Below, in pieces: positions 36,452 through 51,015 of a stretch of 64,000 nucleotides of DNA. This stretch comes from a virus. Each line of letters begins with the position of its first letter. The first letter of the stretch is position 1. Made by a program: the position numbers and the translations under genes. Below the pieces are notes generated by a model, which saw only the letters and a list, made by a program, of their open reading frames with translations, had not been told where the DNA came from and did no database searches. The stretch is taken from positions 1 through 64,000 of the IMG/VR virus record IMGVR_UViG_3300042383_000546. One strand, 5' to 3'.

Positions 36452-36730
36452 TTATGACTTCGATATAACTATTTCCGCTATGTCCCCTGATGTACCCGCA
36501 TCAATCGTAACTCCGTCAATCGGGTTAGATACAACCGATGCTGTGATTGTAACACCTTGTCCTTCGTTTAAGGTTACAGGGTCAGAAGCAATACCTTGAA
36601 ATGTACCGCTACCTGCTACTGTTATTGTACCTAAACGACAAATAACGCTTAGTCTCACTGCATTGTCTGATGCAGCTACTGATAAGCTATCATTGGTAAG
36701 GGTGTATGTCCAAATGTTAGTTGCTCCCAT
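36452..36730 (-). CDS. small beta-rich structural protein
   Basis: 92 aa, rich in T/V/S/G. Confidence 0.55.
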   Translation of the reverse strand: MGATNIWTYTLTNDSLSVAASDNAVRLSVICRLGTITVAGSGTFQGIASDPVTLNEGQGVTITASVVSNPIDGVTIDAGTSGDIAEIVISKS

Positions 36731-36734
36731 TTTA

Positions 36735-37223
36735 TTATTTTATTAAGTTCTTAAAATTATTTTTATACTCAAAAGGTATGGTTGTCTTTATAAATCCACT
36801 TTCCACCTTCACATAGCCTTTTGCCTCAAAAGTCATATCTTTTGCTGCAATAGTCAGTGTTACTAAATTCACTAAATTACCTAGAACAAGTCTAGGGTCA
36901 AAGCTAAATCTATACGTTGCATCTGTAGTCTTTGCAGGTAAAACAACTATATCTTTCACATCGTTTACGTTACCTACTTTGATACCATTGATAGTAAAAT
37001 CAAGATACATTTCCTTAATGGTAGCCTCTACATTTGAAGCGTTATAGATTCTATTAGTAATGTCCAAAGATATGTTATCCATAGATATTTTAACAACTTT
37101 AAGACCTACTACTTGATAAGTAATATCCTTTAAGAAGTTAATCTGCTGCTTATAATAGCGAACAAGGGCATAACCTATTACGGCTAACCCTGATATTACT
37201 AATAGTGGTTTTAAATTTTTCAT
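36735..37223 (-). CDS. LEA_2/WHy-like beta-sandwich with N-terminal anchor
   Basis: TM, then IYNASNVEATIKEMYLDFTINGIKVG. Confidence 0.65.
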   Translation of the reverse strand: MKNLKPLLVISGLAVIGYALVRYYKQQINFLKDITYQVVGLKVVKISMDNISLDITNRIYNASNVEATIKEMYLDFTINGIKVGNVNDVKDIVVLPAKTTDATYRFSFDPRLVLGNLVNLVTLTIAAKDMTFEAKGYVKVESGFIKTTIPFEYKNNFKNLIK

Positions 37224-37822
37224 TTCTTGAAAATTAACGCAATTACTACGAGTGCACCTATGCCAATTCCACCGTAAATTAATAAATTTTTGTTTACTCC
37301 ACCTACAGTTTTTGTATCACCTCCCATATCAAGACCAACTAAATCACCTTTTGCTTTGTTCACGCTAGTATCTGATACGGTTGTAAGGGTATCTAAGAGG
37401 TCTTTCCTTTCTTTTTCTTTCTTTTCGGCTTCAGCTTTATTTACGCAATCATACTGATTTCTAAGCATTTTTGCATTAGCTTCTGCCTCAATTGCAAACT
37501 TTCTTTGAATAGGTAATTCAAAAGCATTACTTGAAGCCATGAGCTTTGTAATTCTTTCTCTTTCTACCATAGCGTCTTGAAGTAGTAAATCAATACCTCC
37601 ACAGGTTTTTGTATCATATCTAGCCCACTTTGCTTTAGCGTCTTTCTCTACTTGAGCAATAGACTCTTTACGCTTTTTGCTACCAAATAGGCTATAAAAC
37701 TGCTCTTCACCTGTAAAACAAGCATATCCATTAGTTTTTTCGTCTACAAAGCATCTGTCGTTACCTACTCTTGAAGGAGCTAGAGCACTAAGCTCATTAT
37801 TTTCAATCATGTCTATAGCCAT
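37220..37822 (-). CDS. membrane protein, C-terminal anchor
   Basis: LLIYGGIGIGALVVIALIFKK; contains FTGEEQFY. Confidence 0.7.
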   Translation of the reverse strand: MAIDMIENNELSALAPSRVGNDRCFVDEKTNGYACFTGEEQFYSLFGSKKRKESIAQVEKDAKAKWARYDTKTCGGIDLLLQDAMVERERITKLMASSNAFELPIQRKFAIEAEANAKMLRNQYDCVNKAEAEKKEKERKDLLDTLTTVSDTSVNKAKGDLVGLDMGGDTKTVGGVNKNLLIYGGIGIGALVVIALIFKK

Positions 37823-37831
37823 AACCTTATT

Positions 37832-38341
37832 TTATATTGTGTATTTAATCTTTTTAGCAGCCCAATCCTTATTTATGTTACTTACTCTATAAGAGGTTAA
37901 GCCAAAATATTCGTTACCTAATTCCTTCTTAACATAAGTCAATAAGTCCATTTTATCACCCACAGGTATACCAAAAGCATAGTCCTGACGGCTACCAAAT
38001 GATTTAATGAGTTTGGCAACATCTAGGTCATTTTTCATTTTTTTCAATGAATCTTGAACTGCAGCATAGTCATCACCAACGGCAAATCTCATGCTATTGT
38101 ATATAGTATTAGCCAAAGTATCATATGTGCTATCGGGATAACTAGCCTTTTGAAATCTTTGTAGATTTGAAATTTCGCTGTTTATGTTTCTACCTAGTTC
38201 AGCGTTTCTTTTTGCCTCTTCCGAAGGAAATACAATCGTGTAAAGTTTCTTACCAACGAAAAATAGGGCTGCAGCACCGCCAACTACAACGATACCTTTA
38301 GCCCATTGAGGTAAATCTTTATAATACTGATATACTTTCAT
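37832..38341 (-). CDS. membrane-anchored protein with an annexin-like repeat
   Basis: LANTIYNSMRFAVGDDYAAV...KNDLDVAKLIKSFG. Confidence 0.5.
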   Translation of the reverse strand: MKVYQYYKDLPQWAKGIVVVGGAAALFFVGKKLYTIVFPSEEAKRNAELGRNINSEISNLQRFQKASYPDSTYDTLANTIYNSMRFAVGDDYAAVQDSLKKMKNDLDVAKLIKSFGSRQDYAFGIPVGDKMDLLTYVKKELGNEYFGLTSYRVSNINKDWAAKKIKYTI

Positions 38342-38351
38342 AATATTTTTT

Positions 38352-38606
38352 TTATCTTACTGCCCTACCACCCTTAGTATTAATAGTTTTACCATTATAC
38401 TCAAATGTAGGTATATTGTTTTTTGCTGCTTTAGACCAAACTCTTAAAAAAGCCATGTCAAACTTTTTAAGGTCTTCTAACGTTCCCGTACTAGCGTCCG
38501 CTTTTTTGATTGCTCTAGCATAAGCATTTTTAGAGAAATACATATAGTAAGCTCCATAAGCTACTACTGCGTAAAGACCAACGTAAAAAACTAATTTTTT
38601 ATTCAT
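38352..38606 (-). CDS. small membrane protein, N-terminal anchor
   Basis: KKLVFYVGLYAVVAYGAYYMYF. Confidence 0.7.
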   Translation of the reverse strand: MNKKLVFYVGLYAVVAYGAYYMYFSKNAYARAIKKADASTGTLEDLKKFDMAFLRVWSKAAKNNIPTFEYNGKTINTKGGRAVR

Positions 38607-38615
38607 AACTTTTTT

Positions 38616-39140
38616 TTATATATACCTAAATTTATATCCGCTACAAGATTTAGATACACCTCTTAAATTCTGACTTATTGCAGTAGCAGAAACACCAAAT
38701 TCTTTAGATGTTTCTTTTATGCCATTACAAAATCTAATATGATTACCTTTTAAATCCATTTGCTCAAATTTAACTCTTAAAAGTAATCCGTTTTTACTTG
38801 TATCAATTAATTTATTTTTTATGGCATGGACAATTTGCTCTCTATGAGTAGCCCATTCTAAATTTTCAACTCTATTGTCTTTCTTATTACCATTAATATG
38901 ATTCACAGTTGGTTTTCCATCAGAATTTTCTATAAATGCTTCAGCAACTAACCTATGAGCAAAAACTAATTTCACACCATCTTCATTTCTAATTTTACAT
39001 TTTATATAGCCTCTAACATTAGTACCATTAACTTTTACCCAATTGCCCTCAAGGTTTTTTTGACATAAAGATTTACTATATACATTTCCATGAATATCTA
39101 CCTTATAGTTCGGGTATTTGTATACAATTTTGTCTTCCAT
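38616..39140 (-). mobile_element. free-standing HNH homing endonuclease (NUMOD4-HNH-NUMOD1 type)
   Basis: YPNYKV..HGNV; HRLVAEAF...VNHINGNKKDNRVENLEW. Confidence 0.9.
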
Positions 39141-39147
39141 CTTATAA

Positions 39148-39951
39148 TTAATTGCCTGAAGCGTAAACGTCTTTAATATTATATTCAGCTATATAGTCCT
39201 TAATAAACTTATCGATGATTTGGTATCTTATTTTATTTTCGGGACTAGGAAACCCTATAAATGTTTCTCCAAATGCAGCATAAGCCTCCTTGATTGGATA
39301 GCCTAAGCCTAAATATATTGTAAGACCGTTTAAGTCTGCTTCAGTTTCGTTTGCTATATCACTATTCACATAGTAGTGGCTAAACTCATGGAGTAAAATT
39401 GCCATTCTCATAGGAATAGTAAAAGGCACAAAGGCTTCCTGAGAAACTTGTATTCTACCATTTTTTGTGCTGATACGAGCAGGTGTAGCCATTTTCTGAC
39501 CTTTACTGCTAATAATAAAAGGTAAATATTCAATTTTGAAATTACCTGCAGCACTTACATAATCTTTTTTAGAAGATAACGAACCTGCATTATAACAGAA
39601 CTTTTGAGCAAAAGCAACGAAGTTTCTTACAAGTGGAGTGTCCATTTTGGTTTTACCCAAAGTAATATCTAGCTCCTCTCTTTTTACTTCTAGTACTTCA
39701 AAAGTAGGGTCTTCACCCTTTTTCTTATTACCATTCTTTTCATTATAGATGTCCAAAATACAAGTGTTTGGAGCTAAAGGCATCCTAACATATAATTCTT
39801 GAGTTCCATCTATTGTTTTAGTTCTATTGGTAAAATAGGTATTAGCCTGACCCTTATCATACACCTTTAATACAATAACTTGAGGACTAGTCGTTTTCAC
39901 TACTACCTTCACTTTGCAGGGGGCAAATCTCGTCCACAGGTTATATTGCAT
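39148..39951 (-). CDS. zincin-like metalloprotease (candidate maturation protease)
   Basis: ILLHEFSHY...NETEAD (HExxH plus downstream ExxAD). Confidence 0.7.
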   Translation of the reverse strand: MQYNLWTRFAPCKVKVVVKTTSPQVIVLKVYDKGQANTYFTNRTKTIDGTQELYVRMPLAPNTCILDIYNEKNGNKKKGEDPTFEVLEVKREELDITLGKTKMDTPLVRNFVAFAQKFCYNAGSLSSKKDYVSAAGNFKIEYLPFIISSKGQKMATPARISTKNGRIQVSQEAFVPFTIPMRMAILLHEFSHYYVNSDIANETEADLNGLTIYLGLGYPIKEAYAAFGETFIGFPSPENKIRYQIIDKFIKDYIAEYNIKDVYASGN

Positions 39952-40246
39952 CAGTATACAATGGGGTTTTTATTTTATCAGGATTTATACGACTTCTACG
40001 TTTTTGAGACTCCATAGCTTTTTCTTTTACCGCCTTACTAGCTTGTACGGGAGGTAACACAACTTCAAAATCTCTTAAAAAAGCATTCGTATACTTTGAA
40101 GATTCTACGTTTGTAGCATCAGCAATAACTTCTTTTACTTCAGCGTCTGTCATTAAACTAGCAGAAGGTTTTTTGAAACCTCTGTAATATAAGTGAGCAG
40201 CAATACCGCCTACTAAAACTCCAATAAGTACATCACCTATTTTCAT
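39941..40246 (-). CDS. small membrane protein, N-terminal anchor
   Basis: VLIGVLVGGIAAHLYY. Confidence 0.65.
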   Translation of the reverse strand: MKIGDVLIGVLVGGIAAHLYYRGFKKPSASLMTDAEVKEVIADATNVESSKYTNAFLRDFEVVLPPVQASKAVKEKAMESQKRRSRINPDKIKTPLYTDAI

Positions 40247-40247
40247 A

Positions 40248-40547
40248 TTATTTCTTTTTCATGATTTGACGAGCTACTACAGCTAACAAAATAATACCAC
40301 CCACGATATATAAAGTCTTTACAGGCATTCCTAAAACTGTTTTTCCCATGTCTTTTTCTTTAGTTTTAAATTTATTTAAAGTTAAATTAATTTCTTGATT
40401 TAACCCATCATTCAAAGGGAAAATCCCTTTTGTTTTTTCTCTTGTAAGCCACTCAGAGAAATTGAGTGTACCGCCATCTTCTTTGTAAATTTTGAAAAGC
40501 TGATTTGCGGTTAGTGTCTTGTCCAAATCAATTTGACTTTCTGCCAT
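40248..40547 (-). CDS. small membrane protein, C-terminal anchor
   Basis: LYIVGGIILLAVVARQIMKKK. Confidence 0.7.
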   Translation of the reverse strand: MAESQIDLDKTLTANQLFKIYKEDGGTLNFSEWLTREKTKGIFPLNDGLNQEINLTLNKFKTKEKDMGKTVLGMPVKTLYIVGGIILLAVVARQIMKKK

Positions 40548-40555
40548 ATTTATGT

Positions 40556-41005
40556 TTATTTTTTGAATAAGTACAAAGAAGAAGCAAAACCTATCATGTT
40601 ATTACCATCTTCAGAAACTTGATACCAACCTGCAACCTGAGAAGGACTGCCGTAAAGGGTACTTCCGTTTGCTATCTTCTTCACTATTTCAGACTTTGCA
40701 CTTGGGGTCTTTCTAATATTTAGATTACTACCTAGTGTTTTAACCTGAAGGGCTTGTTTTGAGCCTGTGTTTAAGAATAAAGCAGCTAATGGATTTGTAA
40801 GTGCTAGATTAGCAGATACAAGTGCCTTTTTTTGCTCATCTGTTAATTCAGTAGATGTTGAAGCTGTAGGGTCAATAGTTATAGTTTCTCCTTCAACTTT
40901 TGGAGCATCTTTTTTGCCGAATAGCTTTCCTCTAAAAGCATAGAGTAAACCACCTACAGCTAATACACTTGCAACCCCGATTAATATTTTTGTATTCTTT
41001 TCCAT
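40556..41005 (-). CDS. membrane-anchored bacterial SH3 (SH3b) domain protein
   Basis: N-terminal TM; NLNIRKTPS..S.IV...GWYQV...GFASS.YL. Confidence 0.8.
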   Translation of the reverse strand: MEKNTKILIGVASVLAVGGLLYAFRGKLFGKKDAPKVEGETITIDPTASTSTELTDEQKKALVSANLALTNPLAALFLNTGSKQALQVKTLGSNLNIRKTPSAKSEIVKKIANGSTLYGSPSQVAGWYQVSEDGNNMIGFASSLYLFKK

Positions 41006-41006
41006 T

Positions 41007-41408
41007 TTATTTGTGTTCTATTAGTAATTCACCTAATACTTCTATTCTACCAACCTTTTTTTGAAAGTCAATTTGCCCGATACTCATGTCCTGAATACCA
41101 TTATTTACTTCACTAATCAAACCTTTAAGTTCCTTTTCAGCTTCAGCAAAATCTAATTTTCCTTCAGCAGCACTTTTATAGTAGGGCTCTTTGACATCAA
41201 AATGATAGTAAGTCAGCATTGATAGTCCACCTTTTTCTTTAGCGTTTTCTGCAATCTTCATAGCACCCTCTCCCCTTTTTTTAGAGAAGTCTTCAAGTTG
41301 TTTGTCTGTGCTCTGAGTACTCTGCTTTTTATTTTTATTCATAATTAAATAGGTTAAGCCCAATAGACCTAACCCACCTAATATGAATACTTTTGTGTTT
41401 TGTTCCAT
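41007..41408 (-). CDS. small membrane protein, N-terminal anchor
   Basis: N-terminus MEQNTKVFILGG resembles MEKNTKILIG of the adjacent gene. Confidence 0.65.
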   Translation of the reverse strand: MEQNTKVFILGGLGLLGLTYLIMNKNKKQSTQSTDKQLEDFSKKRGEGAMKIAENAKEKGGLSMLTYYHFDVKEPYYKSAAEGKLDFAEAEKELKGLISEVNNGIQDMSIGQIDFQKKVGRIEVLGELLIEHK

Positions 41409-41635
41409 TATTCTTCTACTTTAGGTAGTAATAACTGAGATACCAAACCACCAATAATAGCTCCTATAAACGCTGAAGAGACTAAATTGTACTGACGAGA
41501 ATAACCTATTAAAAGACCACCTGCCATTCCAATAAAGCCTCCTGTTATAGTGCCTTTTGTTTTTTTCAAAGCCATACTATCAGACTTTGATTTAAGCTCT
41601 TTAGCTTTTTGTAATAGTTCTGATGCTTCAGCCAT
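41408..41635 (-). CDS. glycine-zipper membrane protein
   Basis: GGFIGMAGGLLIG...AFIGAIIGGLV. Confidence 0.7.
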   Translation of the reverse strand: MAEASELLQKAKELKSKSDSMALKKTKGTITGGFIGMAGGLLIGYSRQYNLVSSAFIGAIIGGLVSQLLLPKVEE

Positions 41636-41646
41636 TTTTTATTTTT

Positions 41647-41748
41647 TTATTTTTGACCGCTCTTCCAACTTCTAGAAACTACATAAACAGTAACACCTAG
41701 TGCTACAAGTCCTAAAGCATACGCTAGTAAATTTTTTCCGTTTTTCAT
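41647..41748 (-). CDS. 33-aa membrane peptide (not in ORF track)
   Basis: MKNGKNLLAYALGLVALGVTVYVVSRSWKSGQK; fills the gap between genes; paralogue at 50314. Confidence 0.7.
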   Translation of the reverse strand: MKNGKNLLAYALGLVALGVTVYVVSRSWKSGQK

Positions 41749-41751
41749 TTT

Positions 41752-42150
41752 TTATGGATTGAATTGTGATAAAATCGTTTTTCTAGGTCTATTCTTTGGT
41801 GCACATCTACAAGCATCTTGGATATTTGTAGGAGCACCGCCCGTTGCATTCATAAACATTGGTGCACCAACACCTCTGTCATAAATGTTAGGTATTAAAT
41901 TCTGAGAACTCATGTAAATTGGAGGTTTAACACCACTACCCAAAGCACTAACGGTTACAGGGTTTGCAGTTAAACCACTTGATGGCTGCTGAGGTGGAGG
42001 TTTAAGGTCAGGAATACCTACAATGATTGGAGGATTTTCATTTTTTAAATCTGAAACCTTAACTTCTTTTTTCTTACTATAATATCTTAAAGCAAGTATA
42101 GTTGCTACTATCCCCGCTCCAAACCATAGTATTTTATTATCTGTTGCCAT
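41752..42150 (-). CDS. Pro-rich membrane protein, N-terminal anchor
   Basis: ILWFGAGIVATILALRYY. Confidence 0.65.
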   Translation of the reverse strand: MATDNKILWFGAGIVATILALRYYSKKKEVKVSDLKNENPPIIVGIPDLKPPPQQPSSGLTANPVTVSALGSGVKPPIYMSSQNLIPNIYDRGVGAPMFMNATGGAPTNIQDACRCAPKNRPRKTILSQFNP

Positions 42151-42152
42151 GA

Positions 42153-42854
42153 TTAGTTAGTTTTTTTAGCTTTTACAATAAGGTATATAGCTGTGATTGC
42201 TACTAACACACCCGCACCAATTATGATGTAAGTGGTAGCACTAGTTTTCTTACTAGGTGTACCCATGTTTGCTCTTAGCTCATCTTGTTGTGCTTGTAAG
42301 GCTGCAGCTTGATTACTAATGTTATTGGCATCAGCTTGAGTCTTGTTATTGATTTTATTTAAACCAATTTGAATACCTGCATTGATTGTATCTTGACTAG
42401 TAAGTGCTTTACCAATGTTTGCTAATAGTAAACCTACTCCTGTCTTTCCTTGAGGATTGTCGGCTGTAACTCTACTTTGTTTTTTAGCAGCAGCAGCTTG
42501 AGCAGCAGCAGCTTTTTTTGCAGCTCTTTCAGCAGCAGTCATATTATAAAAATCATCTGCTCCTGTGAATTGAAAATCGTCAATCCCTGTAAATCCAAAA
42601 TCCTGTGAGCTACCAACAAATGATAATGTTTCACCTGCCTCTTTAACTTTTTCTGTTAGAAAAGTAGACAACTCATTTTTGAAGTTTGGACTTTTAGCTG
42701 AAGCCATAAGTACGGCAATAGTAACTTCTTTGTCAGAAGGATTGTTACCTACTACAACTCCGTTTCTTTTAAGTAATCTAACTAGACCATCTTTATCAGT
42801 AACTACAGCGTATGATAACGCTTCTTCTGTTACTTGTAGTGCACTTACTGCCAT
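42153..42854 (-). CDS. membrane protein, C-terminal anchor, with repeated FTG-acidic motifs
   Basis: FGFTGIDDFQFTGADDFY; YIIIGAGVLVAITAIYLIVK. Confidence 0.7.
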   Translation of the reverse strand: MAVSALQVTEEALSYAVVTDKDGLVRLLKRNGVVVGNNPSDKEVTIAVLMASAKSPNFKNELSTFLTEKVKEAGETLSFVGSSQDFGFTGIDDFQFTGADDFYNMTAAERAAKKAAAAQAAAAKKQSRVTADNPQGKTGVGLLLANIGKALTSQDTINAGIQIGLNKINNKTQADANNISNQAAALQAQQDELRANMGTPSKKTSATTYIIIGAGVLVAITAIYLIVKAKKTN

Positions 42855-42869
42855 GTTATTTTAATTTAA

Positions 42870-43603: not shown

Positions 43604-43629
43604 GATATGCAATTTAATGAATTAAAAGT

Positions 43630-44735: not shown

Positions 44736-44770
44736 AAAAAAAATCCCCAATAGAATTAACTATCAGGGAT
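44736..44770 (-). terminator. probable terminator after the ATPase gene
   Basis: atccc..atag...ctat..gggat stem with an A-tract. Confidence 0.5.
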
Positions 44771-44793: not shown

Positions 44794-45615
44794 CTATCCT
44801 ATATACTGAGCAAGTAGCCTTCTTTTAACTTCAGCTCTTGCCGTATTATCATTATATTTTTTCTTATTCTTTTCGTCTTTGAGCACCAAATAAGGATTTG
44901 TAAGAGCTCTAAAGTTTTCGCTAATATATTGCTCTACTGCATCTTCAATCATTTCTTGGCTATAGTTACCTCTGATGTTTGATTCGTCCATGTCCACATA
45001 ACAGTAAAACCTCTTGTTGCCTGAATCGTACTGAGTGTTTACCATGATTTCGGCAATACGCATATACTCAAACTTATCAGGGAATTTATTTTTATGCCTT
45101 TCAACTGATTCGACATTCTTATGAAATCTTAATTGGTTTAGATTACCCCAAAGTTTAGTAACAATTCTGCCAATAGACTGATAAGACAGAATAATGTCTA
45201 AGCCAACGTGACGATTGGTAGCAATAGCACCAACTAAATCAGAAGGCATATGGTCACCGATAAATTTAGAAGGGTCTTCAATGACCAAAAGTCCATTTTT
45301 AAAAGTGCTTAATACATAGAACAAAGCCTGAGCCCATTCGTCTAGTGTCATTCTAGTTCCGTTGGGGTGGAAAGGTCTTATCCTTCTAACTTCTACATGA
45401 GGGTGAACAGTAAAAAGACCTACGTCATTAAGCGACAAAGCTCTGATTCCAAATACTCCATACTCATCGTTTACGTCCATTACAAGAGCCTTACGACCTT
45501 TAATGCCATGATAAGGGTCTCCTTCTACATATTTGTTTATGGTAATCATGTGAGCCCAAGTTTTTCCCACACCTTTTTTACCAACTGCTGCCATCAATAA
45601 AGGTTCTCTTCCCAT
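44794..45615 (-). CDS. FtsK/HerA-superfamily genome-packaging ATPase (A32/P9-like)
   Basis: Walker A GKKGVGKT, Walker B LLVIED, Arg finger NRH, sensor SYQ; no nuclease domain. Confidence 0.8.
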   Translation of the reverse strand: MGREPLLMAAVGKKGVGKTWAHMITINKYVEGDPYHGIKGRKALVMDVNDEYGVFGIRALSLNDVGLFTVHPHVEVRRIRPFHPNGTRMTLDEWAQALFYVLSTFKNGLLVIEDPSKFIGDHMPSDLVGAIATNRHVGLDIILSYQSIGRIVTKLWGNLNQLRFHKNVESVERHKNKFPDKFEYMRIAEIMVNTQYDSGNKRFYCYVDMDESNIRGNYSQEMIEDAVEQYISENFRALTNPYLVLKDEKNKKKYNDNTARAEVKRRLLAQYIG

Positions 45616-45617
45616 TT

Positions 45618-45905
45618 CTAATTTTTTGTTTCTTTAAGTGCCATTTCTATTCTGTAAGAATCGTACACTTTTGAAAATGATATTCTTCTGATAGTAGTAT
45701 CACACATAGCAAAGTCATACTCAATCTTCATAAAGTTTTCTTTCTTTATAAAAATCGGGATAACCTTACAATCCTCTACATAAATGATAAAATCGTCATC
45801 GTTTTCAACAGGGAAATAGATTTTTTCTGCCTCTTTATCAAAGACACGAATAACACTCATTATCCTCTGCTTAAACTCAATCCACTCAGGGCTTTTAATT
45901 CTCAT
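45618..45905 (-). CDS. hypothetical protein
   Basis: operon context. Confidence 0.55.
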   Translation of the reverse strand: MRIKSPEWIEFKQRIMSVIRVFDKEAEKIYFPVENDDDFIIYVEDCKVIPIFIKKENFMKIEYDFAMCDTTIRRISFSKVYDSYRIEMALKETKN

Positions 45906-45906
45906 T

Positions 45907-47034
45907 TTAATCTAGTCCTTGCATTTGTGGATTTGGTTTCTCTTTCCCGTCTTTGTCCGTTTCTCTCAAAATTATTGCTTCAGCTATTTCACTTTCGTCA
46001 ATGTTATTGATATAATCTTTTGGTCTACGACCTCTTTTACCACCTGTCTTTCTACTTTTCATAGCCTCTTGATATGAGCTATTGCCACCATTTGCTTTTG
46101 CTGCATTTTCACTCCAAATCTTCTCCTTAGCTCTTTGTTCCATGAGCTTTGCTTTACCCGTTGAAGGAACTTTGTGTTCCGTTACAGTTGAGTTTATTAC
46201 CGCCTCATTTGAGTTGAAATTATCAAACTCTTGAGTTGCTTCATAAGTTGGTGTAGGTGTCGGGGTTGGTGTAGGCTTTGGTGCAGATGGTTTAGGTGTT
46301 GGTACAGCCCCGCTAGATTTAATAGCTGCAGTATTTTCTACTAAAGCATTAATCAAATCATTTGCAGTAGATTTCATTTGATAAATGAGAACACTCTTAA
46401 CTGCAATATCTTTACCAAAAGCAAAGAGTACATACTGCTCATCAGTCATACCCGCACCTCTTTTTTCTAGTATTCTTACTAGTGGAGGTTTAACGTCTTT
46501 TTTGAACTCTTTAGAAACAACTAAAGTGTCTTTTGTTTGGTTGTTAAACTCTTCAATAAACTCACCTGCAGAAATAGTAGAACCATCTGCCGTTGGCACT
46601 TGAATAGATAAATCTAATTCACCTTCAGCTTGAAGTTTTTTAATTCTTTTTTCAGGAATTTTCAGGAACATATTTCCCCATGAGTTGATTTGCTCATAGG
46701 TATCTAATATGATTGTAGCTAAGTGTTCTGCACCTGCTTTCTTTTCTGCATCAGTTGCTTGATTCATGGCAGGGTTTACAGGAGCTGATTCGTTTCTACG
46801 ATTACCTCCACCGCCACCATCACCGCCTAGCATATCGTATGGGTTATCTCTAGTATTTATTGACTGAGGTTGAAAAGAAGGCTCAGGAATAATAGTAGAT
46901 AATCGGTCTTGAGAAACAAAACCTGTTGGCTGACTATATGGTTTATCATTTACGTTGTCACTAAAGGGCATAAACTCCCTTTTAGGTTCTGTAAATGTTT
47001 GCTGATTTTGTTGCTGTTCAGTCTGATTTTCCAT
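45907..47034 (-). CDS. hypothetical protein upstream of the ATPase, with a Pro/Thr linker
   Basis: 375 aa; PTPKP repeats; KRGRRPK. Confidence 0.65.
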   Translation of the reverse strand: MENQTEQQQNQQTFTEPKREFMPFSDNVNDKPYSQPTGFVSQDRLSTIIPEPSFQPQSINTRDNPYDMLGGDGGGGGNRRNESAPVNPAMNQATDAEKKAGAEHLATIILDTYEQINSWGNMFLKIPEKRIKKLQAEGELDLSIQVPTADGSTISAGEFIEEFNNQTKDTLVVSKEFKKDVKPPLVRILEKRGAGMTDEQYVLFAFGKDIAVKSVLIYQMKSTANDLINALVENTAAIKSSGAVPTPKPSAPKPTPTPTPTPTYEATQEFDNFNSNEAVINSTVTEHKVPSTGKAKLMEQRAKEKIWSENAAKANGGNSSYQEAMKSRKTGGKRGRRPKDYINNIDESEIAEAIILRETDKDGKEKPNPQMQGLD

Positions 47035-47039
47035 GATGG

Positions 47040-47459
47040 TTATTTGTTTAATAGTATTTTATCTAGTTTGTCTTTTATTTTTAAATAGGGTATATCCGAT
47101 TTGTACTTAGGGTTCAAAGACTCAATCAGAATTTTGTATTTACTGATATTGGTCTTATGCCTAGATATGAAAATGGTATCACTAATATCTCTTATAGTCA
47201 TACTTTTATAAAGATAGTAAACGCAAAAACCCACCGCAAACTTGTTATCACCTCTAGCGTACTTAGCATACAGCAAAGATTCTACGTCCATGCTAAATGC
47301 CTGTGAAACTGAGTTTAATACCAAATTTATGTATGGGTCATCAAAAGAGGTTACTTGACCATCTTCTATTGTGAGAGCAGCCATTGTTTTGTCATATCCA
47401 TTTTTCTTAAAATAGCTGACAAAAGTCTCAAGAGCTGTAAATGTATTATCAAGATTCAT
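47040..47459 (-). CDS. DnaA C-terminal-like helix-turn-helix protein
   Basis: VSQAFSMDVESLL...CVYYL...MTIRDIS..F..RHKTNI. Confidence 0.5.
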   Translation of the reverse strand: MNLDNTFTALETFVSYFKKNGYDKTMAALTIEDGQVTSFDDPYINLVLNSVSQAFSMDVESLLYAKYARGDNKFAVGFCVYYLYKSMTIRDISDTIFISRHKTNISKYKILIESLNPKYKSDIPYLKIKDKLDKILLNK

Positions 47460-47501: not shown

Positions 47502-47903
47502 TTACCAACCTGAAATTATATTTTTTAATTTACCGCCATTTTGTTTAAACCACTCTTTGCCTATCACTCTTAGCTTTACATCAGGGTGATATTTAGCCAT
47601 CCTTTTAATCTTTGTTGCTGACTTTGCATCCATGTAGCCCTTTATTTCAATCCATTCCTCTGAGCCACTAGGAAAAATGACCATAAAATCAGGTTTATAG
47701 TTATTTGTTCCCCTCTTTATTGCCTCAAACCAAAAGGTCTTAGGTTCGTGCTGCCATTCAATTATATGACCATGCTTTTTCATAAACTCCAAATACAAAG
47801 CATATCTATATTCCCATCTGCTTCTATAAAAGTTTCTTTTACCACCAATTTCAGCCCAATCTTGTTTCCAAGTGGACTTACCGTCTTTTAAGTGTATTTG
47901 CAT
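47502..47903 (-). CDS. PD-(D/E)xK endonuclease (DUF1064/resolvase-like)
   Basis: RSRWE...YKPDF...IEIKG. Confidence 0.8.
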   Translation of the reverse strand: MQIHLKDGKSTWKQDWAEIGGKRNFYRSRWEYRYALYLEFMKKHGHIIEWQHEPKTFWFEAIKRGTNNYKPDFMVIFPSGSEEWIEIKGYMDAKSATKIKRMAKYHPDVKLRVIGKEWFKQNGGKLKNIISGW

Positions 47904-48544
47904 TATAGTCCGTATCTAGCTTTGAAATCTCTGTCTTTTATGATAGTTTCAACACAATAAAGTGAGAAATCGTTATCTGAAGGATAGTGAAGACCCAAAT
48001 AAATTCTTGAGTATTCAATGTCCTTAGCCAAAGAATCAAAATAGCCAAACTTCTCAGGGAAGTGATTGCCTAGTACATGGCAAATCAAGGCTGCCTGAAA
48101 TGTATGACCTGCAGGATATGAGGGTGTTTCAGCCGAAACTGAACTAAAAGGGAATAGTTTTAATTTGTAGTGCTGTGCTAACTGATAAGGTCTTGGACGC
48201 TGAAAATGGTACTTTAATTTAAGTATCACAGGCAGACTTTCGTCTATTAGACTATCTACTAGTTCTATGCCTTTGTCCCCTAGTTCCTGATTTATAATAA
48301 CACTAGCAAATATTCTTTCAATAGAAGGGTCGTATGACCTATATCTTTTGAGAGCCTCTTCGTCAGCTTTTACATCACCGATATAATCTACTACTTCGTT
48401 TAATTCCTCTCTAGTAGCTTTTGAGCTATTCAAAGGGAAACCAAACTTGATTAATTGAGGCAAATGTTTATCTAAAGGGCTTTCAACCTCTAAATAAGGT
48501 AATTGCCTTTGTGTTGGATTGCCATAGGTTATAGAATCAAGCAT
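47903..48544 (-). CDS. PAP2-superfamily phosphatase
   Basis: KYHFQRPRP, PSYPAGH, SRIYLGLHYPSD. Confidence 0.9.
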   Translation of the reverse strand: MLDSITYGNPTQRQLPYLEVESPLDKHLPQLIKFGFPLNSSKATREELNEVVDYIGDVKADEEALKRYRSYDPSIERIFASVIINQELGDKGIELVDSLIDESLPVILKLKYHFQRPRPYQLAQHYKLKLFPFSSVSAETPSYPAGHTFQAALICHVLGNHFPEKFGYFDSLAKDIEYSRIYLGLHYPSDNDFSLYCVETIIKDRDFKARYGL

Positions 48545-48578
48545 AATTGTTTATGGTTATTTTGTGTTTTTATATTTT

Positions 48579-49007
48579 TTATTTTTTTACCCACCTGTTA
48601 GGTCTGTATACCGTTTGTACCGCTTGTAAACCATTTCCTCTTGATTCGGGAGCAGTAAATTTATAAACTCCAAATTGAGTAGTTAAAGTATCACCTAACG
48701 TTGGTTTACCACCTACTGAATACTTTTTCATGGCAGCACTTTCAAAGGCTAAAACCTCTTCTTTGCTATCCATCATACCACCATAAAGATTACTAAATAC
48801 CCTATTTGATGGAATTACAGATGGTTCTCTACTAGGTAGCTTAATACCTCCACCTCCACTTCTAACTACTTCTTCGTAAGTGAGACCGCCTCTATTATCT
48901 TGAGGCTGAGTAACTACACCTTGACCTTTTTGTCCTCTCATCTTGTAGACATAAAATGCTACTGCACCTAAGCCTAAAGCAATTAGAATCTTTTGATTTG
49001 TTGTCAT
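48579..49007 (-). CDS. membrane protein, N-terminal anchor
   Basis: ILIALGLGAVAFYVYK. Confidence 0.7.
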   Translation of the reverse strand: MTTNQKILIALGLGAVAFYVYKMRGQKGQGVVTQPQDNRGGLTYEEVVRSGGGGIKLPSREPSVIPSNRVFSNLYGGMMDSKEEVLAFESAAMKKYSVGGKPTLGDTLTTQFGVYKFTAPESRGNGLQAVQTVYRPNRWVKK

Positions 49008-49223
49008 TTATTTTCTGTTTTTCAAGTAATTATTTCCGTTGTATATAAGTGTAGAAAGTCCTAAAATGAATAAACCAACCCTTATTGGATTGGATAAACT
49101 CTTTTGACTAGCTACATAAAAACAAAAGGGTGAAATTACAAATACGTCTACAAGTCTTATCTGCTGAACAGATAAAAATGGACTATAAGTTGTACTAGTT
49201 TCTTTTTTTGTCATATTATCCAA
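49008..49223 (-). CDS. small two-helix membrane protein
   Basis: IRLVDVFVISP...TLIYNGNNY. Confidence 0.65.
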   Translation of the reverse strand: MDNMTKKETSTTYSPFLSVQQIRLVDVFVISPFCFYVASQKSLSNPIRVGLFILGLSTLIYNGNNYLKNRK

Positions 49224-49605
49224 GTCTCATAACGGGTCTTCTGCCTCTTGAGCCTGAAGCGTTTACTTCTGCTGTTTTCTTTGCAGCAAGAGCAGCACTT
49301 TCCAACTTACCGATTCTTTCAATCACGTCATTGTAAGCACTCTTTTCCATAGCCATCATGAGCCTGAAATATTGAATAGCATAAATACCAACACCCACTA
49401 TCAAAGCAGACACAGATACCTCTACTACGTTAATATCACCAAACCAAGCTCTGATACCGCCACCACTTGTTGTTTCACCGCCTTCTGCCATAGCAGGTGC
49501 AGGTGTAGGAGCAGGAGCAGCCATAGGCATGGGAGCTGCTGCAGGTGCAGGAGCGGGTGTGCTTACGGGTGCAGGAGGGGCACTATTTTCTATTGTTGTA
49601 TTCAT
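49216..49605 (-). CDS. membrane protein with a Pro/Ala leader ending in MAEGG
   Basis: PAPAMAEGGETT, then a TM segment. Confidence 0.7.
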   Translation of the reverse strand: MNTTIENSAPPAPVSTPAPAPAAAPMPMAAPAPTPAPAMAEGGETTSGGGIRAWFGDINVVEVSVSALIVGVGIYAIQYFRLMMAMEKSAYNDVIERIGKLESAALAAKKTAEVNASGSRGRRPVMRLG

Positions 49606-49606
49606 T

Positions 49607-50170
49607 TTAATCTTTTTTCTTTTTAGCTACTAAGTAAATGCCTAGTGCAACGAGTAGTAACCACCAATAACTCTTCTTTTTCTCAACAGGTGCAGCATCT
49701 TCACTACCACCGCCTCCACCACCGCCCATAGGTCTAATTCCTAGATTGGTTGAAGGTAAAATAGGAATAACGGGAATTGCAGGGACTACTACGTTTGTAT
49801 CAGGTTTTGGAGCTGCCGTTGTAGTACTAGTAGTTGTGCTAGTCGTACTATCTTCAGGTCTATTACAATACCTTTGAAACATATCATAAGCAGCCATTGT
49901 TTCATTAGGAGTTGCTGCCCCACCGCCATTTGTAGAAATAAACGTTGCTAAATCGGCACAAAAGGTAGGAGAGCCAAGTTGAGGTAACTGCATACGAGAA
50001 CCCGTACCGCCACCTAGATTGTCTTTAGTTGTATCGTTGGGATTTGATGGGTCACCTTCTAAGCCCACAAATTCAGACTTACCCGTACCAATATCATAAG
50101 AGTGATTTCGAGGTTTTACGAATTTATCTTCTCCCTCAAATACAATGACCTTTTCTTTCCTTTTTGCCAT
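49607..50170 (-). CDS. membrane protein with Thr tract and C-terminal anchor
   Basis: STTSTTTSTTT; YWWLLLVALGIYLVAKKKK. Confidence 0.7.
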   Translation of the reverse strand: MAKRKEKVIVFEGEDKFVKPRNHSYDIGTGKSEFVGLEGDPSNPNDTTKDNLGGGTGSRMQLPQLGSPTFCADLATFISTNGGGAATPNETMAAYDMFQRYCNRPEDSTTSTTTSTTTAAPKPDTNVVVPAIPVIPILPSTNLGIRPMGGGGGGGSEDAAPVEKKKSYWWLLLVALGIYLVAKKKKD

Positions 50171-50175
50171 AATGC

Positions 50176-50295
50176 TTATTTTAATTGGGCTGCAGCTCTT
50201 TTAATAGCGTCAGTCCATTTTTCCCCTTGTTTGCGGATTTTCTTAGCCAATTTAGCAATATCTGCTACATTGATTTTCTTTTTAGCTGTTGCCAT
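50176..50295 (-). CDS. 39-aa basic peptide, possibly DNA-condensing (not in ORF track)
   Basis: MATAKKKINVADIAKLAKKIRKQGEKWTDAIKRAAAQLK. Confidence 0.65.
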   Translation of the reverse strand: MATAKKKINVADIAKLAKKIRKQGEKWTDAIKRAAAQLK

Positions 50296-50313
50296 TTTTA
50301 TATTTTTTAGTGA

Positions 50314-50421
50314 TTATTGACCACTTTTCCAAGCAGAACTGATTACTCTTACGGTTACATAAAGAACCAATAAACTTAAACCAACTCCTACTGCTGTAGA
50401 TACGATACCTTTCTTTTCCAT
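50314..50421 (-). CDS. 35-aa membrane peptide (not in ORF track), paralogue of 41647..41748
   Basis: MEKKGIVSTAVGVGLSLLVLYVTVRVISSAWKSGQ. Confidence 0.7.
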   Translation of the reverse strand: MEKKGIVSTAVGVGLSLLVLYVTVRVISSAWKSGQ

Positions 50422-50493
50422 GATTTTTATTTTTTAGATTTAAAAATAAGTTGTATAAAATTAGCAATTATTTCTAATTACCTATATTTTTTT

Positions 50494-51015
50494 TTATTTA
50501 GCTGTCACGTTTCCACCAAAGCTGCCTTTACCTCCAAAGAAAGCGTCATCCCAAAAGGTTTCTTCGTTTCCTGTGAATGGTTTGTACTCAAATACGTCAA
50601 AACCTGCACTTTGAGGTATATCCCACACCTTTTTAGCTATTGCATCTTCATTACCTGTAAATGAGTGTACATCGTCTTTATTCCTTAGTATTTTGTCTAC
50701 TAAGCCTCTTTTGAGGATTTCTATTCTGTCAAAATAACGCTGCCCGTTTGGCTGAATAGAAGTACCGAACCTTACACCCCAATCATAAGCTATAAGATAA
50801 CTAGACTCACCTCTAAGCACAAATGGCTTACCATTTATTGTTAAATAAGCAATTCCCTTACTATAGTCAATGCTATCAATCGTAATCTTAGGAGACCATA
50901 TGTTGTTTTTATAAAAGGTGTAAAGACCAAAAACAGCCACAACACCTGTAGATATTGCTGCTATCCTTAGAAATGTACTATTTGCTTTGCTTAGTTTACT
51001 TGTTAAATCTGACAT
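50494..51015 (-). CDS. membrane protein with two FTGNE motifs
   Basis: N-terminal TM; start at 51015 avoids overlap with the lysin gene. Confidence 0.65.
   Translation of the reverse strand: MSDLTSKLSKANSTFLRIAAISTGVVAVFGLYTFYKNNIWSPKITIDSIDYSKGIAYLTINGKPFVLRGESSYLIAYDWGVRFGTSIQPNGQRYFDRIEILKRGLVDKILRNKDDVHSFTGNEDAIAKKVWDIPQSAGFDVFEYKPFTGNEETFWDDAFFGGKGSFGGNVTAK

Follow-up and report, generated by a model that had tools for sequence, protein, structure and literature searches.

Gene content of an uncultured lake-water bacterial virus of about 85 kb with features of tailless, membrane-lined viruses and a predicted jelly-roll coat-type protein

The DNA analysed here is a window of 64,000 nucleotides (positions 1 to 64,000) from the IMG/VR virus record IMGVR_UViG_3300042383_000546, whose full length is 84,229 bases. 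The interval 36452-51015 and its flanks contain a P-loop ATPase gene, a very small membrane protein gene, a gene for a β-rich protein, and a long series of genes for small membrane proteins, all on the minus strand (Table 1). A PAP2 lipid phosphatase, cell-wall enzymes, a candidate protease and collagen-repeat fibre proteins are also encoded in the window.

Table 1. Features of the window, with positions numbered from its first base. "Loci" are the 75 IMG/VR loci in which the ATPase gene was found; G001, G002 and G005 are the three relatives whose sequences were fetched in full.
Position	Strand	Feature	Observations
1..114	.	inner 114 bases of a probable inverted terminal repeat	perfect reverse complement of record positions 83325-83438, which lie 791 bases from the right end, outside the window
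13359..13856	-	165-aa paralogue of the last two thirds of the jelly-roll protein	BLASTP 32% over 108 aa, E 2e-13; hhalign probability 97.6%, E 3.7e-12; present in G001 and G002, not found in G005
26815..36011	-	2813-aa and 248-aa collagen-repeat fibre proteins, the large one ending in an endosialidase-chaperone domain; candidate vertex fibres	PF01391 at 9.5e-44, PF13884 at 2.6e-6; weak PHROG "tail fiber" hits
36452..38606	-	five small proteins: a 92-aa β-rich protein, an N-anchored protein with a borderline LEA_2 domain (a core gene), and three membrane-anchored proteins	LEA_2 at 25.0 bits against a cut-off of 25.4
38616..39140	-	HNH homing endonuclease, a mobile insertion	PF13392 at 7.8e-11, phrog_59 at 3.2e-38; in only 4 of 75 loci
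39148..39951	-	267-aa HExxH protein, a core gene and candidate virion-maturation protease	HEFSH motif; no Pfam or PHROG hit; in 57 of 75 loci, in G001, G002 and G005, and in the chromosomal elements of Fluviicola and 'Glaciecola'
39941..43175	-	run of eight small proteins, most with one terminal membrane helix	one also has an SH3_3 domain
43181..43612	-	143-aa tail-anchored membrane protein, a core gene	C-terminal hydrophobic helix, then TTKK; in 58 of 75 loci and in G001, G002 and G005
43630..43667 (approximate)	-	hairpin plus T run after the coat-type gene	read from the sequence
43695..44393	-	232-aa predicted single jelly-roll protein, the probable major capsid protein	N-terminal helix, floppy acidic/aromatic linker, β core at residues 55-230; in 64 of 75 loci
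44451..44558	-	35-aa single-pass membrane mini-gene directly upstream of the coat-type gene	read from the sequence
44743..44770	-	terminator-like hairpin after the ATPase gene	listed by the consensus terminator scan
44794..45615	-	273-aa FtsK/HerA-type P-loop ATPase, the probable genome-packaging motor	Walker A GKKGVGKT, Walker B LLVIED; in 75 loci
45618..47459	-	95-aa, 375-aa and 139-aa proteins without family	no Pfam or PHROG hits; the 375-aa protein (45907-47034) is a core gene in 73 of 75 loci, with low-complexity and basic stretches, possibly a scaffold or DNA-binding protein
47502..47903	-	DUF1064 / resolvase-like endonuclease, accessory	PF06356 at 2.8e-6, phrog_190 at 3.3e-18, phrog_218 "head closure" at 2.6e-9; in 13 of 75 loci
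47903..48544	-	PAP2-family lipid phosphatase, a core gene	PF01569 at 1.9e-9, over its cut-off; in 69 of 75 loci and in G001, G002 and G005
48579..51084	-	five more small membrane proteins	some with Pro/Thr-rich linkers
51017..51640	-	GH19-type endolysin, just outside the interval 36452-51015	phrog_181 at 2.1e-70, PF00182 at 6.1e-7
54394..54675	-	93-aa very basic core protein; candidate DNA-condensing protein (inference)	55-61% identical in G001, G002 and G005; no Pfam or PHROG hit; nearest Atlas clusters have DUF5754 on 11-16% of members (a lead only)
55216..55929	-	SLT lytic transglycosylase, a core gene and candidate virion-borne wall-cutting enzyme	PF01464 at 1.6e-12; in G001, G002 and G005

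The original prediction had described an A32/P9-type ATPase, a β-rich capsid candidate with its own terminator and about 30 small proteins with a terminal membrane helix flanked by lysines, without any recognisable terminase, portal, HK97 capsid, tape measure or tail tube, and all of these items are indeed in the sequence. The ATPase reads VGKKGVGKTW, GLLVIEDPS, TNRHVGLD and SYQSIGR in its four motif regions, and in 46 relatives the residues G12, K14, G15, G17, K18, E113, D114, R135, H136 and Q146 are invariant. The terminator after the coat-type gene is a G+C-rich hairpin followed by a T run, about 30 bases after the stop. It was not listed by the consensus scan, because its loop is longer than 8. 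The small membrane proteins were counted in two ways. In the whole record, 36 of 123 non-nested ORFs have a 19-residue Kyte-Doolittle window of 1.6 or more. Using a stricter test (a charge-free 17-mer of 1.3 or more), 18 of 39 minus-strand ORFs between 36.4 and 55.2 kb pass, against 16 of 84 elsewhere. The ORF sets include some spurious frames, and the figure of about 30 is therefore right only as an order of magnitude. Many of these proteins end in Lys-rich tails, such as IALIFKK, IMKKK, YYVNKK, IITTKK and VAKKKKD.

The structural model of the ATPase has a pLDDT of 90.6. In a Foldseek search, the first ranks are all filled by B204, the genome-packaging NTPase of STIV/STIV2, with E values of 5.7e-10 to 3.3e-8, followed by the Zot N-domain at 3.1e-6 and HerA at 8.2e-6. 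VIA-align similarly places B204 first (Z 18.2, rmsd 2.5 Å, 186 of 204 residues), then DndH-C (16.0), HerA (15.9) and VirB4 (15.7), so that the closest solved fold is the packaging NTPase of a jelly-roll, membrane-containing virus. The ATPase of the window has no Pfam or PHROG hit of its own, DUF87/HerA is matched weakly by 28 of 46 family members, and hhalign against PRD1 P9 aligns only the Walker A motif (probability 10%). Zot is also matched weakly, in 15 of the 46 relatives, and VirB4 and TrwB are among the structural neighbours, which together with the very many membrane proteins and the absence of a tyrosine integrase from the stretches of chromosomal relatives checked could suggest a pleomorphic or enveloped virus, or a non-viral mobile element, using the ATPase for membrane-linked DNA export. 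We consider this very unlikely: B204 stands 2 Z units above all of the transfer ATPases, there is a conserved and strongly represented jelly-roll gene, a lysis set (GH19 and holin-like proteins) and fibres, and IMG/VR holds the record and the 75 related loci as viral.

The 232-aa protein was modelled using AlphaFold2 (pLDDT 86, pTM 0.75), and is predicted to be a single, not a double, jelly-roll. The absence of such a fold had been set out in advance as something that would overturn the original prediction, and the model is in its favour. However, the structural matches are weak (Z 4.2-5.9), no Foldseek row from the PDB reaches E <= 0.001, no specific capsid family is matched, and a Z score under 8 may mean only a common arrangement. 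The top-50 lists hold many virus capsid and vertex jelly-rolls, namely GFLV, PR772 (6q5u_O), PBCV-1, PM2, EhV-201, phiCjT23, faustovirus, STIV A223, STMV, SPMV and CPMV, although the same lists also hold non-capsid jelly-rolls (nucleoplasmin, Ena pili and TNF-like). Relatives of the protein number 525 clusters at 90% identity and 549 representatives at 50%. It is the best conserved protein of the block, in that the 120 clusters listed are 79-100% identical, against 53-74% for the ATPase apart from its own cluster. In 2 of the 150 listed representatives there are two complete cores in tandem.

The arrangement of genes provides further clues. A hydrophobic ORF of 34-57 aa lies between the ATPase and jelly-roll genes in 64 of the 64 related loci where both flanking genes were placed, and the order of ATPase, tiny membrane gene, coat gene and small membrane gene is that of PRD1, where P20 (42 aa) lies between P9 and the capsid gene P3. 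In four of four lake RNA libraries examined, the contigs over 43734-44608, which cover the mini-gene and the jelly-roll gene, have word depths of 121, 221.6, 79-184 and 29.5, while the other listed pieces of the block have 2.1-14.2. Contig word depth is a poor measure of expression, the RNA contigs are mostly 90-95% alike (related strains), DNA can be present in RNA libraries, and a second high-depth bin at 48007-48673 is unexplained. The core set shared with relatives of 84.7-102 kb comprises the ATPase, the jelly-roll protein, the tail-anchored protein, the HExxH protein, PAP2, the 375-aa protein, the basic 93-aa protein and SLT.

An alternative is that the virus is of the tailless jelly-roll type, but that the 232-aa protein is a vertex (penton) or fibre-head protein, the true major capsid protein being one that we did not recognise. 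In support of this, the second-best structural row is chain 6q5u_O of the PRD1-like phage PR772 (124 residues; Z 5.6, rmsd 3.5 Å, 100 aligned), which is the penton protein. The N-terminal roll of PM2 chain 2w0c_L and the STIV turret protein A223 are also listed, a search of the viral-model library ranks C1q/collagen fibre heads first at E about 1e-4, and an N-terminal helix plus a floppy linker before the roll would also suit an anchored spike. On the other hand, its high conservation is unlike that of receptor-binding tips, it sits where PRD1 has its capsid gene, its RNA-library contigs are the deepest listed, and tandem double-core forms are expected for capsomer building blocks. No other core protein is β-rich and of capsid size, the others being PAP2, HExxH, the low-complexity 375-aa protein, SLT and small membrane proteins. 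This alternative is considered unlikely.

The original prediction would also have failed had a terminase, portal and HK97 capsid been found elsewhere on the contig. The record and relatives of 84.7-102 kb were searched for these and gave no match. Pfam and/or PHROGs were used to scan 57 different proteins of the record, and no terminase, portal, HK97 capsid, tape measure or tail tube was recognised. None of the 50 proteins scanned against PHROGs matched a family annotated as terminase, portal, major head, tail tube, sheath or tape measure. The scans included all 14 ORFs of 300 aa or more, none of which matched a terminase or portal family; eleven got another assignment, and three (333, 375 and 2093 aa) got none. 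Terminase_6N matched 0 of 1 plus 0 of 5 records, TerL_ATPase 0 of 5, Phage_capsid 0 of 1 and Phage_portal 0 of 1, with four of the relatives searched for Terminase_6N and TerL_ATPase being estimated 100% complete. Ten large ORFs of the 102-kb relative also gave none, and four host genomes with chromosomal relatives have no Terminase_6N match at all.

A tailed phage, with these proteins too divergent to detect or on missing DNA, and with the ATPase and jelly-roll protein serving other ends (for example a DNA-pumping accessory and a decoration protein), is nevertheless a further possibility. The record is an uncircularised metagenome contig estimated by CheckV to be 90% complete, and HK97 capsids and portals can escape profile searches. 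PHROG hits with tailed-phage labels do occur, these being "tail fiber" families for the two collagen proteins (3.6e-9 to 1.3e-4), "head closure" for the DUF1064 endonuclease, and "lytic tail protein" for the SLT protein (1.7e-7). The collagen repeats and endosialidase-chaperone end of the fibre proteins may point in the same direction, as may the large polyvalent proteins, which are typical of tailed phages and conjugative elements. However, a B204-like ATPase next to a jelly-roll gene and a mini membrane gene is the signature of the other plan, and together with the searches above this makes a tailed phage improbable.

The ends of the record suggest a linear genome with inverted terminal repeats of at least 905 bases. 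A bacterial host is indicated by the GH19, SLT and glucosaminidase wall enzymes, RecT and HNH. Relatives having both the ATPase and the jelly-roll protein lie in chromosomes or long contigs labelled Fluviicola, Crocinitomicaceae and Parvicellaceae, and the chromosomal relatives occur in Flavobacteriales, including the cultured Fluviicola chungangensis MAH-3.

Taken together, we propose, with a probability of about 0.68, that the block at 36.4-55.9 kb is the virion-assembly and exit module of a large, lytic-type bacterial virus of lake Bacteroidota, built on the plan of tailless, membrane-lined jelly-roll viruses rather than on the tailed-phage plan. In this view, about 20 small single-pass proteins and the PAP2 lipid phosphatase would be inserted into host membrane, which would become a vesicle under the shell. 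The jelly-roll protein would be transcribed with the mini-gene as a separate, strongly represented unit between its own terminators, and would form the shell capsomers as homo-oligomers. The ATPase would sit at one vertex, perhaps held by the mini-protein as P20/P22 hold P9 in PRD1, and would pump the linear genome of about 85 kb into the preformed particle. The HExxH protein may trim virion proteins, the collagen-like fibres with a self-cleaving chaperone end would decorate the vertices, a virion SLT transglycosylase would help entry, and the GH19 lysin and holin-like proteins would release the progeny. Of this scheme, our computations demonstrate the fold of the ATPase, the domains of the fibre, transglycosylase and lysis proteins and, in part, the separate coat-gene unit; everything else is inferred. 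No virion has been seen and no particle, lipid or protein data exist, so that the membrane, the lack of a tail and the capsid role are all inferences.

The original interpretation, a jelly-roll, internal-membrane bacterial virus far larger than its models, is thus supported, though by computation only, and some details need correction. The coat-type protein is predicted to be a single jelly-roll, the genome is at least about 85 kb rather than just over 64 kb, and the comparison with genomes of 10-30 kb should include the cultured membrane-containing phage SSIP-1, of 43,788 bp. The genome is about twice that of this phage, the largest cultured one of that build compared here. We found no paper on this lineage.

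It is worth comparing the virus with known systems. STIV and STIV2 (Turriviridae) have the closest ATPase fold, and STIV is a jelly-roll virus with an inner membrane, but the sequence identity to B204 is only 14-18%. STIV has an archaeal host, a genome of about 17 kb and a double jelly-roll capsid protein, whereas here the host is bacterial, the genome about 85 kb and the roll single. PRD1 (Tectiviridae, AY848689) shares, besides the gene order, many small membrane proteins in the structural operon, a virion transglycosylase (P7) and a linear genome with inverted terminal repeats. It differs in being 14,927 bp, in its double jelly-roll P3, and in having a protein-primed polymerase, DNA_pol_B_2 having matched 0 of 5 genomes here. 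The profiles of the ATPase and jelly-roll protein find nothing in PRD1 (best E 0.99 and 1.2).

The Halopanivirales/Helvetiavirae (P23-77, IN93, SH1 and relatives) have single jelly-roll capsid proteins beside an A32-like ATPase, with an inner membrane, and P23-77 has two major proteins, each with a single β-barrel core (PMC6356626). No sequence link to them was found. Those viruses have two adjacent capsid genes and genomes of about 16-31 kb, whereas here one jelly-roll gene lies by the ATPase and the partial paralogue lies 30 kb away. For SSIP-1, a tailless phage with Salisaeta sp. SP9-1 as host, the ATPase and jelly-roll profiles find nothing in its six frames (best E 0.56 and 2.1), and tblastn of both proteins against the phage collection also found nothing. 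Its genome, unusually large for a cultured tailless, membrane-containing phage, is circular and half the size of that studied here, and it is described as having PRD1-type architecture and as encoding two capsid protein types (PMC6356626).

The window is the first 64,000 bases of a single virus record of 84,229 bases, which is classed by IMG/VR as linear and estimated by CheckV to be 90% complete. The G+C content is 32-36%, apart from a stretch of 38-46% at 26-36 kb, which is occupied by the collagen-repeat fibre genes. Nearly all genes between 24.9 kb and the right end are on the minus strand, and no tRNA gene was found. The original prediction rested on a P-loop ATPase with recognisable Walker motifs, a β-rich capsid candidate followed by its own terminator, and numerous small membrane proteins, and what it described is confirmed by the present analysis. 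The motifs are present in the ATPase, and are invariant in 46 relatives; the capsid candidate is β-rich and is followed by a hairpin and a T run; and a terminator-like site closes the ATPase gene. Hydrophobic single helices mark 36 of 123 ORFs of the record by one criterion, and by a stricter criterion 18 of 39 ORFs at 36.4-55.2 kb, against 16 of 84 elsewhere. Many of these proteins are tail-anchored with Lys-rich ends.

Positions of the features discussed in the text, in the numbering of the virus record unless another sequence is named.
Feature	Position	Strand
Inner part of probable inverted terminal repeat, left	1-114
Perfect reverse complement of 1-114, 791 bases from the right end	83325-83438
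Right end of the record, from the start of that match	83325-84229
Glycosyltransferase-like genes, first group	9063-12333	-
165-aa paralogue of the last two thirds of the jelly-roll	13359-13856
APS-kinase-like gene	16840-17337
Glycosyltransferase-like genes, second group	18596-24971	+
Glycosyltransferase-like genes, third group	69874-75485	-
Two collagen-repeat fibre proteins	26.8-36.0 kb
Region in which the F-[TV]-G motif recurs	37220-51084	-
Membrane proteins with the F-[TV]-G motif	37220-37822; 42153-42854; 50494-51084	-
Hairpin and T run after the coat-type gene	about 43630-43667
Coat-type (predicted jelly-roll) protein, 232 aa	43695-44393
Deep RNA-library contigs (mini-gene plus jelly-roll gene)	about 43734-44608
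Membrane mini-gene	44451-44558
Two copies of a dyad repeat	44685-44739	-
Terminator-like site after the ATPase gene	44743-44770
FtsK-HerA ATPase	44794-45615
Second bin of high word depth	48007-48673
Gene border within that bin	48545-48578
GH19 endolysin, glucosaminidase and holin-like proteins	51-56.7 kb
PAS domain fused to two C-terminal membrane helices	53031-53780	-
Very basic 93-aa protein	54394-54675	-
2093-aa protein with [MYFL][AE]xGG linkers	56669-62950	-
1366-aa polyvalent protein	65492-69592	-
Chromosomal element, Fluviicola chungangensis MAH-3 (contig 18)	about 126.9-138.7 kb of that contig
Chromosomal element, genome labelled Glaciecola amylolytica	about 900.8-913.1 kb of that genome

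Neither Pfam nor PHROGs names the ATPase of this record. It has the N-terminal Walker A (GxxGxGK[ST], here GKKGVGKT) and the Walker B (hhhhDE, here LLVIED) of the A32/P9/B204-like packaging ATPases, and it has 492 relatives in clusters at 90% identity, a few of them with a precomputed PF01935 (HerA) hit. When 46 relatives were scanned one by one, 31 weakly matched AAA_22, 28 matched DUF87/HerA (best E 2.8e-6) and 15 matched Zot, while a profile comparison (hhalign) with PRD1 P9 aligned only the Walker A, with a probability of 10%, so that at the level of sequence profiles membership of the packaging ATPases is left undecided. An AlphaFold2 model made from 46 sequences is confident (pLDDT 90.6, pTM 0.85), and a Foldseek search of the PDB puts B204, the genome-packaging NTPase of STIV and STIV2, in all of the first rows (E 5.7e-10 to 3.3e-8, TM on target 0.57-0.69), followed by the Zot N-domain (3.1e-6) and HerA (8.2e-6). 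An independent all-against-representatives alignment with VIA-align gives B204 a Z of 18.2 (rmsd 2.5 Å, 186 of 204 residues), with DndH-C at 16.0, HerA at 15.9, VirB4 at 15.7, TrwB at 13.2 and FtsK at 10.7. The protein is therefore an FtsK-HerA ATPase whose nearest solved relative is the packaging motor of a membrane-containing jelly-roll virus, although ATP-driven packaging at a unique vertex was not assayed. As in that group, its gene is close to the putative capsid gene, which lies downstream in 64 of 75 IMG/VR loci with a median gap of 400 bases.

The coat-type protein belongs to a large family without annotation, with 525 clusters at 90% identity and 549 representatives at 50% (E <= 0.001). 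It has no match in Pfam, in PHROGs, in the phage records or in PDB sequences, and a protein-atlas comparison gave scores of 0.80 at best and no family. Folding this protein had been suggested beforehand as a test of the capsid assignment, since the lack of a jelly-roll would have told against it. The AlphaFold2 model, made from 113 sequences (pLDDT 86), has an N-terminal helix (residues 3-18), a disordered acidic and aromatic linker (pLDDT under 50 at 19-44) and a strand core at 55-230 with pLDDT above 90, and the predicted fold is a single jelly-roll. The matches to it are weak. Foldseek finds no PDB row at E <= 0.001, the best rows being small plant-virus and satellite-virus capsid proteins, and VIA-align gives a best Z of 5.9 (grapevine fanleaf virus capsid domain), followed by 5.6 (PR772 chain 6q5u_O, 100 of 124 residues). 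The list also contains PBCV-1, PM2, EhV-201, phiCjT23, faustovirus, adenovirus hexon and STIV A223, together with non-viral jelly-rolls such as nucleoplasmin and Ena pili. No specific family is identified, and by the guidance given with the method such Z values may reflect only a common arrangement. A library of viral models ranks C1q/collagen fibre heads first, which would suit a fibre-head protein; oligomers of the coat-type protein were not modelled.

Despite these weak matches, there are five reasons to read this protein as the major capsid protein. First, it is the most conserved protein of the block: the 120 clusters listed are 79-100% identical, against 53-74% for the ATPase apart from its own cluster. 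Second, it follows the ATPase in the 64 of 75 loci. Third, in all 64 of these loci a single-pass membrane ORF of 34-57 aa lies directly upstream of it, which reproduces the PRD1 order P9, gpi, P20, P3, P22. Fourth, four freshwater metatranscriptome runs from four studies contain contigs of close relatives, mostly 90-95% identical, in which those covering the mini-gene plus jelly-roll gene have word depths of 121, 221.6, 79-184 and 29.5, whereas the other listed pieces of the 20-kb block have 2.1-14.2. Contig depth is a poor measure and DNA may be present in such libraries; even so, a step of 10-fold or more at the borders of one transcription unit, in 4 of 4 runs, is not what contaminating DNA would give. 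There is also a second, unexplained bin of high word depth (75.8, 259.5 and 126 in three of the four runs) over the PAP2 lipid phosphatase gene and a gene border, and some contigs join 41654 to 48567, which hints at a shared intergenic element or another gene order in relatives. Fifth, two of the 150 listed family representatives (P0258 and P0379) carry two complete cores in tandem, each with a domain E of 1e-30 to 1e-43, which suggests that neighbouring copies sit side by side, as the two halves of a double jelly-roll do. The paralogue of the last two thirds of the roll is present in two of the three fully fetched relatives. Between the ATPase terminator and the unit formed by the mini-gene and coat gene there are two copies of TTTTGCTACAAA, 43 bases apart, but the exact 9-mer core is upstream of the coat gene in only 4 of 64 loci, all near-identical strains, and conservation is therefore not shown. 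An F-[TV]-G motif followed by acidic and aromatic residues recurs in the floppy leader of the coat-type protein and in several membrane proteins near the HExxH gene; it was seen on inspection and was not analysed.

The core genes of the block are shared with three fully fetched relatives whose ATPases are 43-51% identical, namely G001 (102 kb), G002 (101 kb) and G005 (84.7 kb). These genes encode the ATPase, the jelly-roll protein, a tail-anchored 143-aa protein, an HExxH protein, a PAP2 lipid phosphatase, a 375-aa low-complexity protein, a very basic 93-aa protein (55-61% identical), an SLT transglycosylase, and an N-anchored protein with a borderline LEA_2 domain. An HNH endonuclease and a DUF1064 endonuclease are sporadic insertions. 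A GH19 endolysin, a glucosaminidase and several holin-like proteins lie at 51-56.7 kb, and among the last of these is a PAS domain fused to two membrane helices. Of the two collagen-repeat fibre proteins, that of 2813 aa ends in an endosialidase-chaperone domain. A conserved lipid enzyme and about 20 small membrane proteins in the structural operon are what one expects of a virus with its own membrane; this evidence is indirect and the membrane is an inference, lipid under the capsid not having been measured.

A terminase, portal and HK97 capsid elsewhere on the contig had been named in advance as the finding that would overturn the tailless reading, and a tailed-phage module was sought in several ways. 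In total 57 different proteins of the record were scanned with Pfam and/or PHROGs, 50 of them with PHROGs, including all 14 ORFs of 300 aa or more, while about half of the small ORFs were left out. Of the 14, eleven are glycosyltransferases, methyltransferases, polyvalent proteins, an unnamed PHROG family or fibres, and three (333, 375 and 2093 aa) have no assignment; none matched a terminase or portal family. Among the proteins scanned, no terminase, portal, major head, tube, sheath or tape-measure family was matched. Hits with tailed-phage labels were limited to 'tail fiber' families on the collagen proteins, 'head closure' (2.6e-9) on the DUF1064 endonuclease, whose best hit is a resolvase family at 3.3e-18, 'virion structural protein' (4.5e-4) on the 248-aa collagen protein, and 'lytic tail protein' on the SLT protein. 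Six-frame searches gave no match for Terminase_6N (PF03237) in this record or in five relatives, four of them estimated complete, nor for TerL_ATPase (PF03354) in five records, and ten large ORFs of the 102-kb relative G001 gave none. The large terminase of Caudoviricetes was thus not found in the sequences searched. Phage_portal (PF04860) and Phage_capsid (PF05065) each matched 0 of 1 record, this one, and no PHROG match was found, but these families are very divergent and only two proteins were folded, so that the absence of a portal and an HK97-fold capsid is not settled by these searches. The 2093-aa ORF was considered as a tape measure and rejected; it is a string of small globular units joined by 24 [MYFL][AE]xGG linkers, with no family hit. 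The linkers are for the most part 62-147 residues apart; shuffled sequences give a mean of 0.41 linkers and at most 3, and the 1366-aa polyvalent protein has 8 of them. It looks like a polyprotein with Gly-Gly cleavage sites.

The first 114 bases are a perfect reverse complement of a stretch close to the right end. In relative G005 the mirror image is seen, the last 50 bases being the reverse complement of 440-489. The simplest reading is a linear genome with inverted terminal repeats of at least 905 bases (here) or 489 bases (G005), one copy of which was collapsed in assembly, in which case the genome would be at least about 85.0 kb. G005 was the only one of five relatives checked to show the pattern: G001, G002 and a further relative, G004, showed none, and another, G003, showed only an internal 40-base match at 90%. 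The protein-primed family B polymerase of Tectiviridae (PF03175) matched 0 of 5 genomes; a terminal protein was not assessed, and no mode of replication was identified.

As regards habitat, 14 DNA runs labelled lake water or freshwater, four of which may be the source sample, contain at least half of the sampled words of 40001-49000. In species-representative genomes the ATPase has 29 related loci, many of them on short contigs of metagenome bins with assorted labels. Five lie in chromosomes or long contigs: Fluviicola chungangensis MAH-3 (an isolate), a complete chromosome labelled Glaciecola amylolytica THG-3.7, two chromosomes of a Parvicellaceae genome, and a 695-kb Crocinitomicaceae contig. 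ATPase identity in these is 35-39%, and each contains a jelly-roll family member 7-37 kb from the ATPase (E 2.9e-36 to 5.1e-49). The Fluviicola and 'Glaciecola' regions also contain the HExxH gene, share 76-80% DNA identity over the two hallmark genes, and lie inside a low-G+C stretch of about 35-40 kb. None of these four genomes has a Terminase_6N match. No tyrosine integrase was found on the Fluviicola contig or near 0.9 Mb of the 'Glaciecola' genome; tRNA genes are present, but the borders were not worked out, nor was it established whether these elements are intact proviruses. Leaders without a Shine-Dalgarno sequence and the wall-degrading enzymes also fit a Bacteroidota host.

The block is proposed to work like the morphogenesis modules of PRD1, PM2, STIV and the sphaerolipoviruses, but it is a member of none of them. 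The coat-type protein is modelled as one roll, and so lacks the double jelly-roll feature of Bamfordvirae, although two family representatives have tandem cores. A single jelly-roll gene follows the ATPase, the next genes encoding small membrane proteins and the paralogue lying 30 kb away, and so the two adjacent capsid genes of Helvetiavirae/Halopanivirales are not present. The P23-77 proteins VP16 and VP17, like the other Helvetiavirae capsid proteins and the PRD1 and PM2 major capsid chains, are not among the 50 rows shown by either VIA-align run, which shows neither relation nor its absence. No sequence-level link to any of these viruses could be found. Megablast of 36452-51015, and tblastn of the ATPase and the jelly-roll protein, against 50,697 phage records gave no match, and profiles of both families against PDB sequences gave only a ClpB Walker A (E 0.039) and noise. 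The cultured phage SSIP-1 was also tested as a possible relative, but a search of its six frames with both profiles found nothing better than E 0.56. The genome is about twice that of SSIP-1 (43,788 bp) and nearly six times that of PRD1 (14,927 bp). Full-text literature searches, judged from titles and the openings of abstracts except for one review (PMC6356626) and without supplementary files, listed no paper on such a lineage.

The proposal of a large, tailless, internal-membrane jelly-roll virus is therefore supported, with the corrections that the roll is single, that the fold matches are weak, that the genome is about 85 kb, and that the size comparison should be made with SSIP-1. The folds (as models), the gene order and the domain matches were computed here, whereas the packaging and shell roles and the membrane are inferred. 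We put the odds at roughly 0.9 that the ATPase is a B204-type motor, 0.65-0.7 that the 232-aa protein is the main shell protein, 0.7 that the virus has no tail, and 0.6 that it has an inner membrane.

Large genomes in bacterial viruses are known almost only from tailed phages, and the tailless, membrane-lined bacterial viruses compared here stop at the 43.8 kb of SSIP-1. A widespread freshwater lineage of 84-102 kb on that plan would show that the combination of jelly-roll and A32-like ATPase scales up in bacteria as it does in giant viruses of eukaryotes, and would add an abundant, overlooked predator of lake Flavobacteriales. It would also supply single and tandem-double jelly-roll forms within one family, for the long-standing question of how double jelly-roll capsids arose, and the chromosomal relative in the cultured strain MAH-3 makes this testable at the bench. 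A more far-reaching possibility, which we consider rather unlikely but which is not excluded, is that this is a class-level, undescribed lineage of bacterial viruses that scales the plan up to 70-130 kb. In this view the shell would be built from one single jelly-roll protein forming homo-oligomeric capsomers, the natural tandem-fused forms would capture the step from single to double jelly-roll, the linear genome would have long inverted terminal repeats but no recognisable polymerase, and the giant bead-on-a-string proteins would be cut at ...[AE]xGG sites, as the core polyproteins of African swine fever virus are.

It is worth adding that small domain families otherwise named from giant viruses turn up: DUF5661 (8.1e-8) and DUF5824 (2.9e-4) in the polyvalent protein, and DUF5754 on 11-16% of members of the nearest Atlas clusters of the basic 93-aa protein. 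In addition, at least nine glycosyltransferase-like genes (GT1, GT2 and GT9 families) lie near the giant collagen-repeat fibre genes, together with an APS-kinase-like gene, a PAPS-reductase-like gene and a PhyH dioxygenase.
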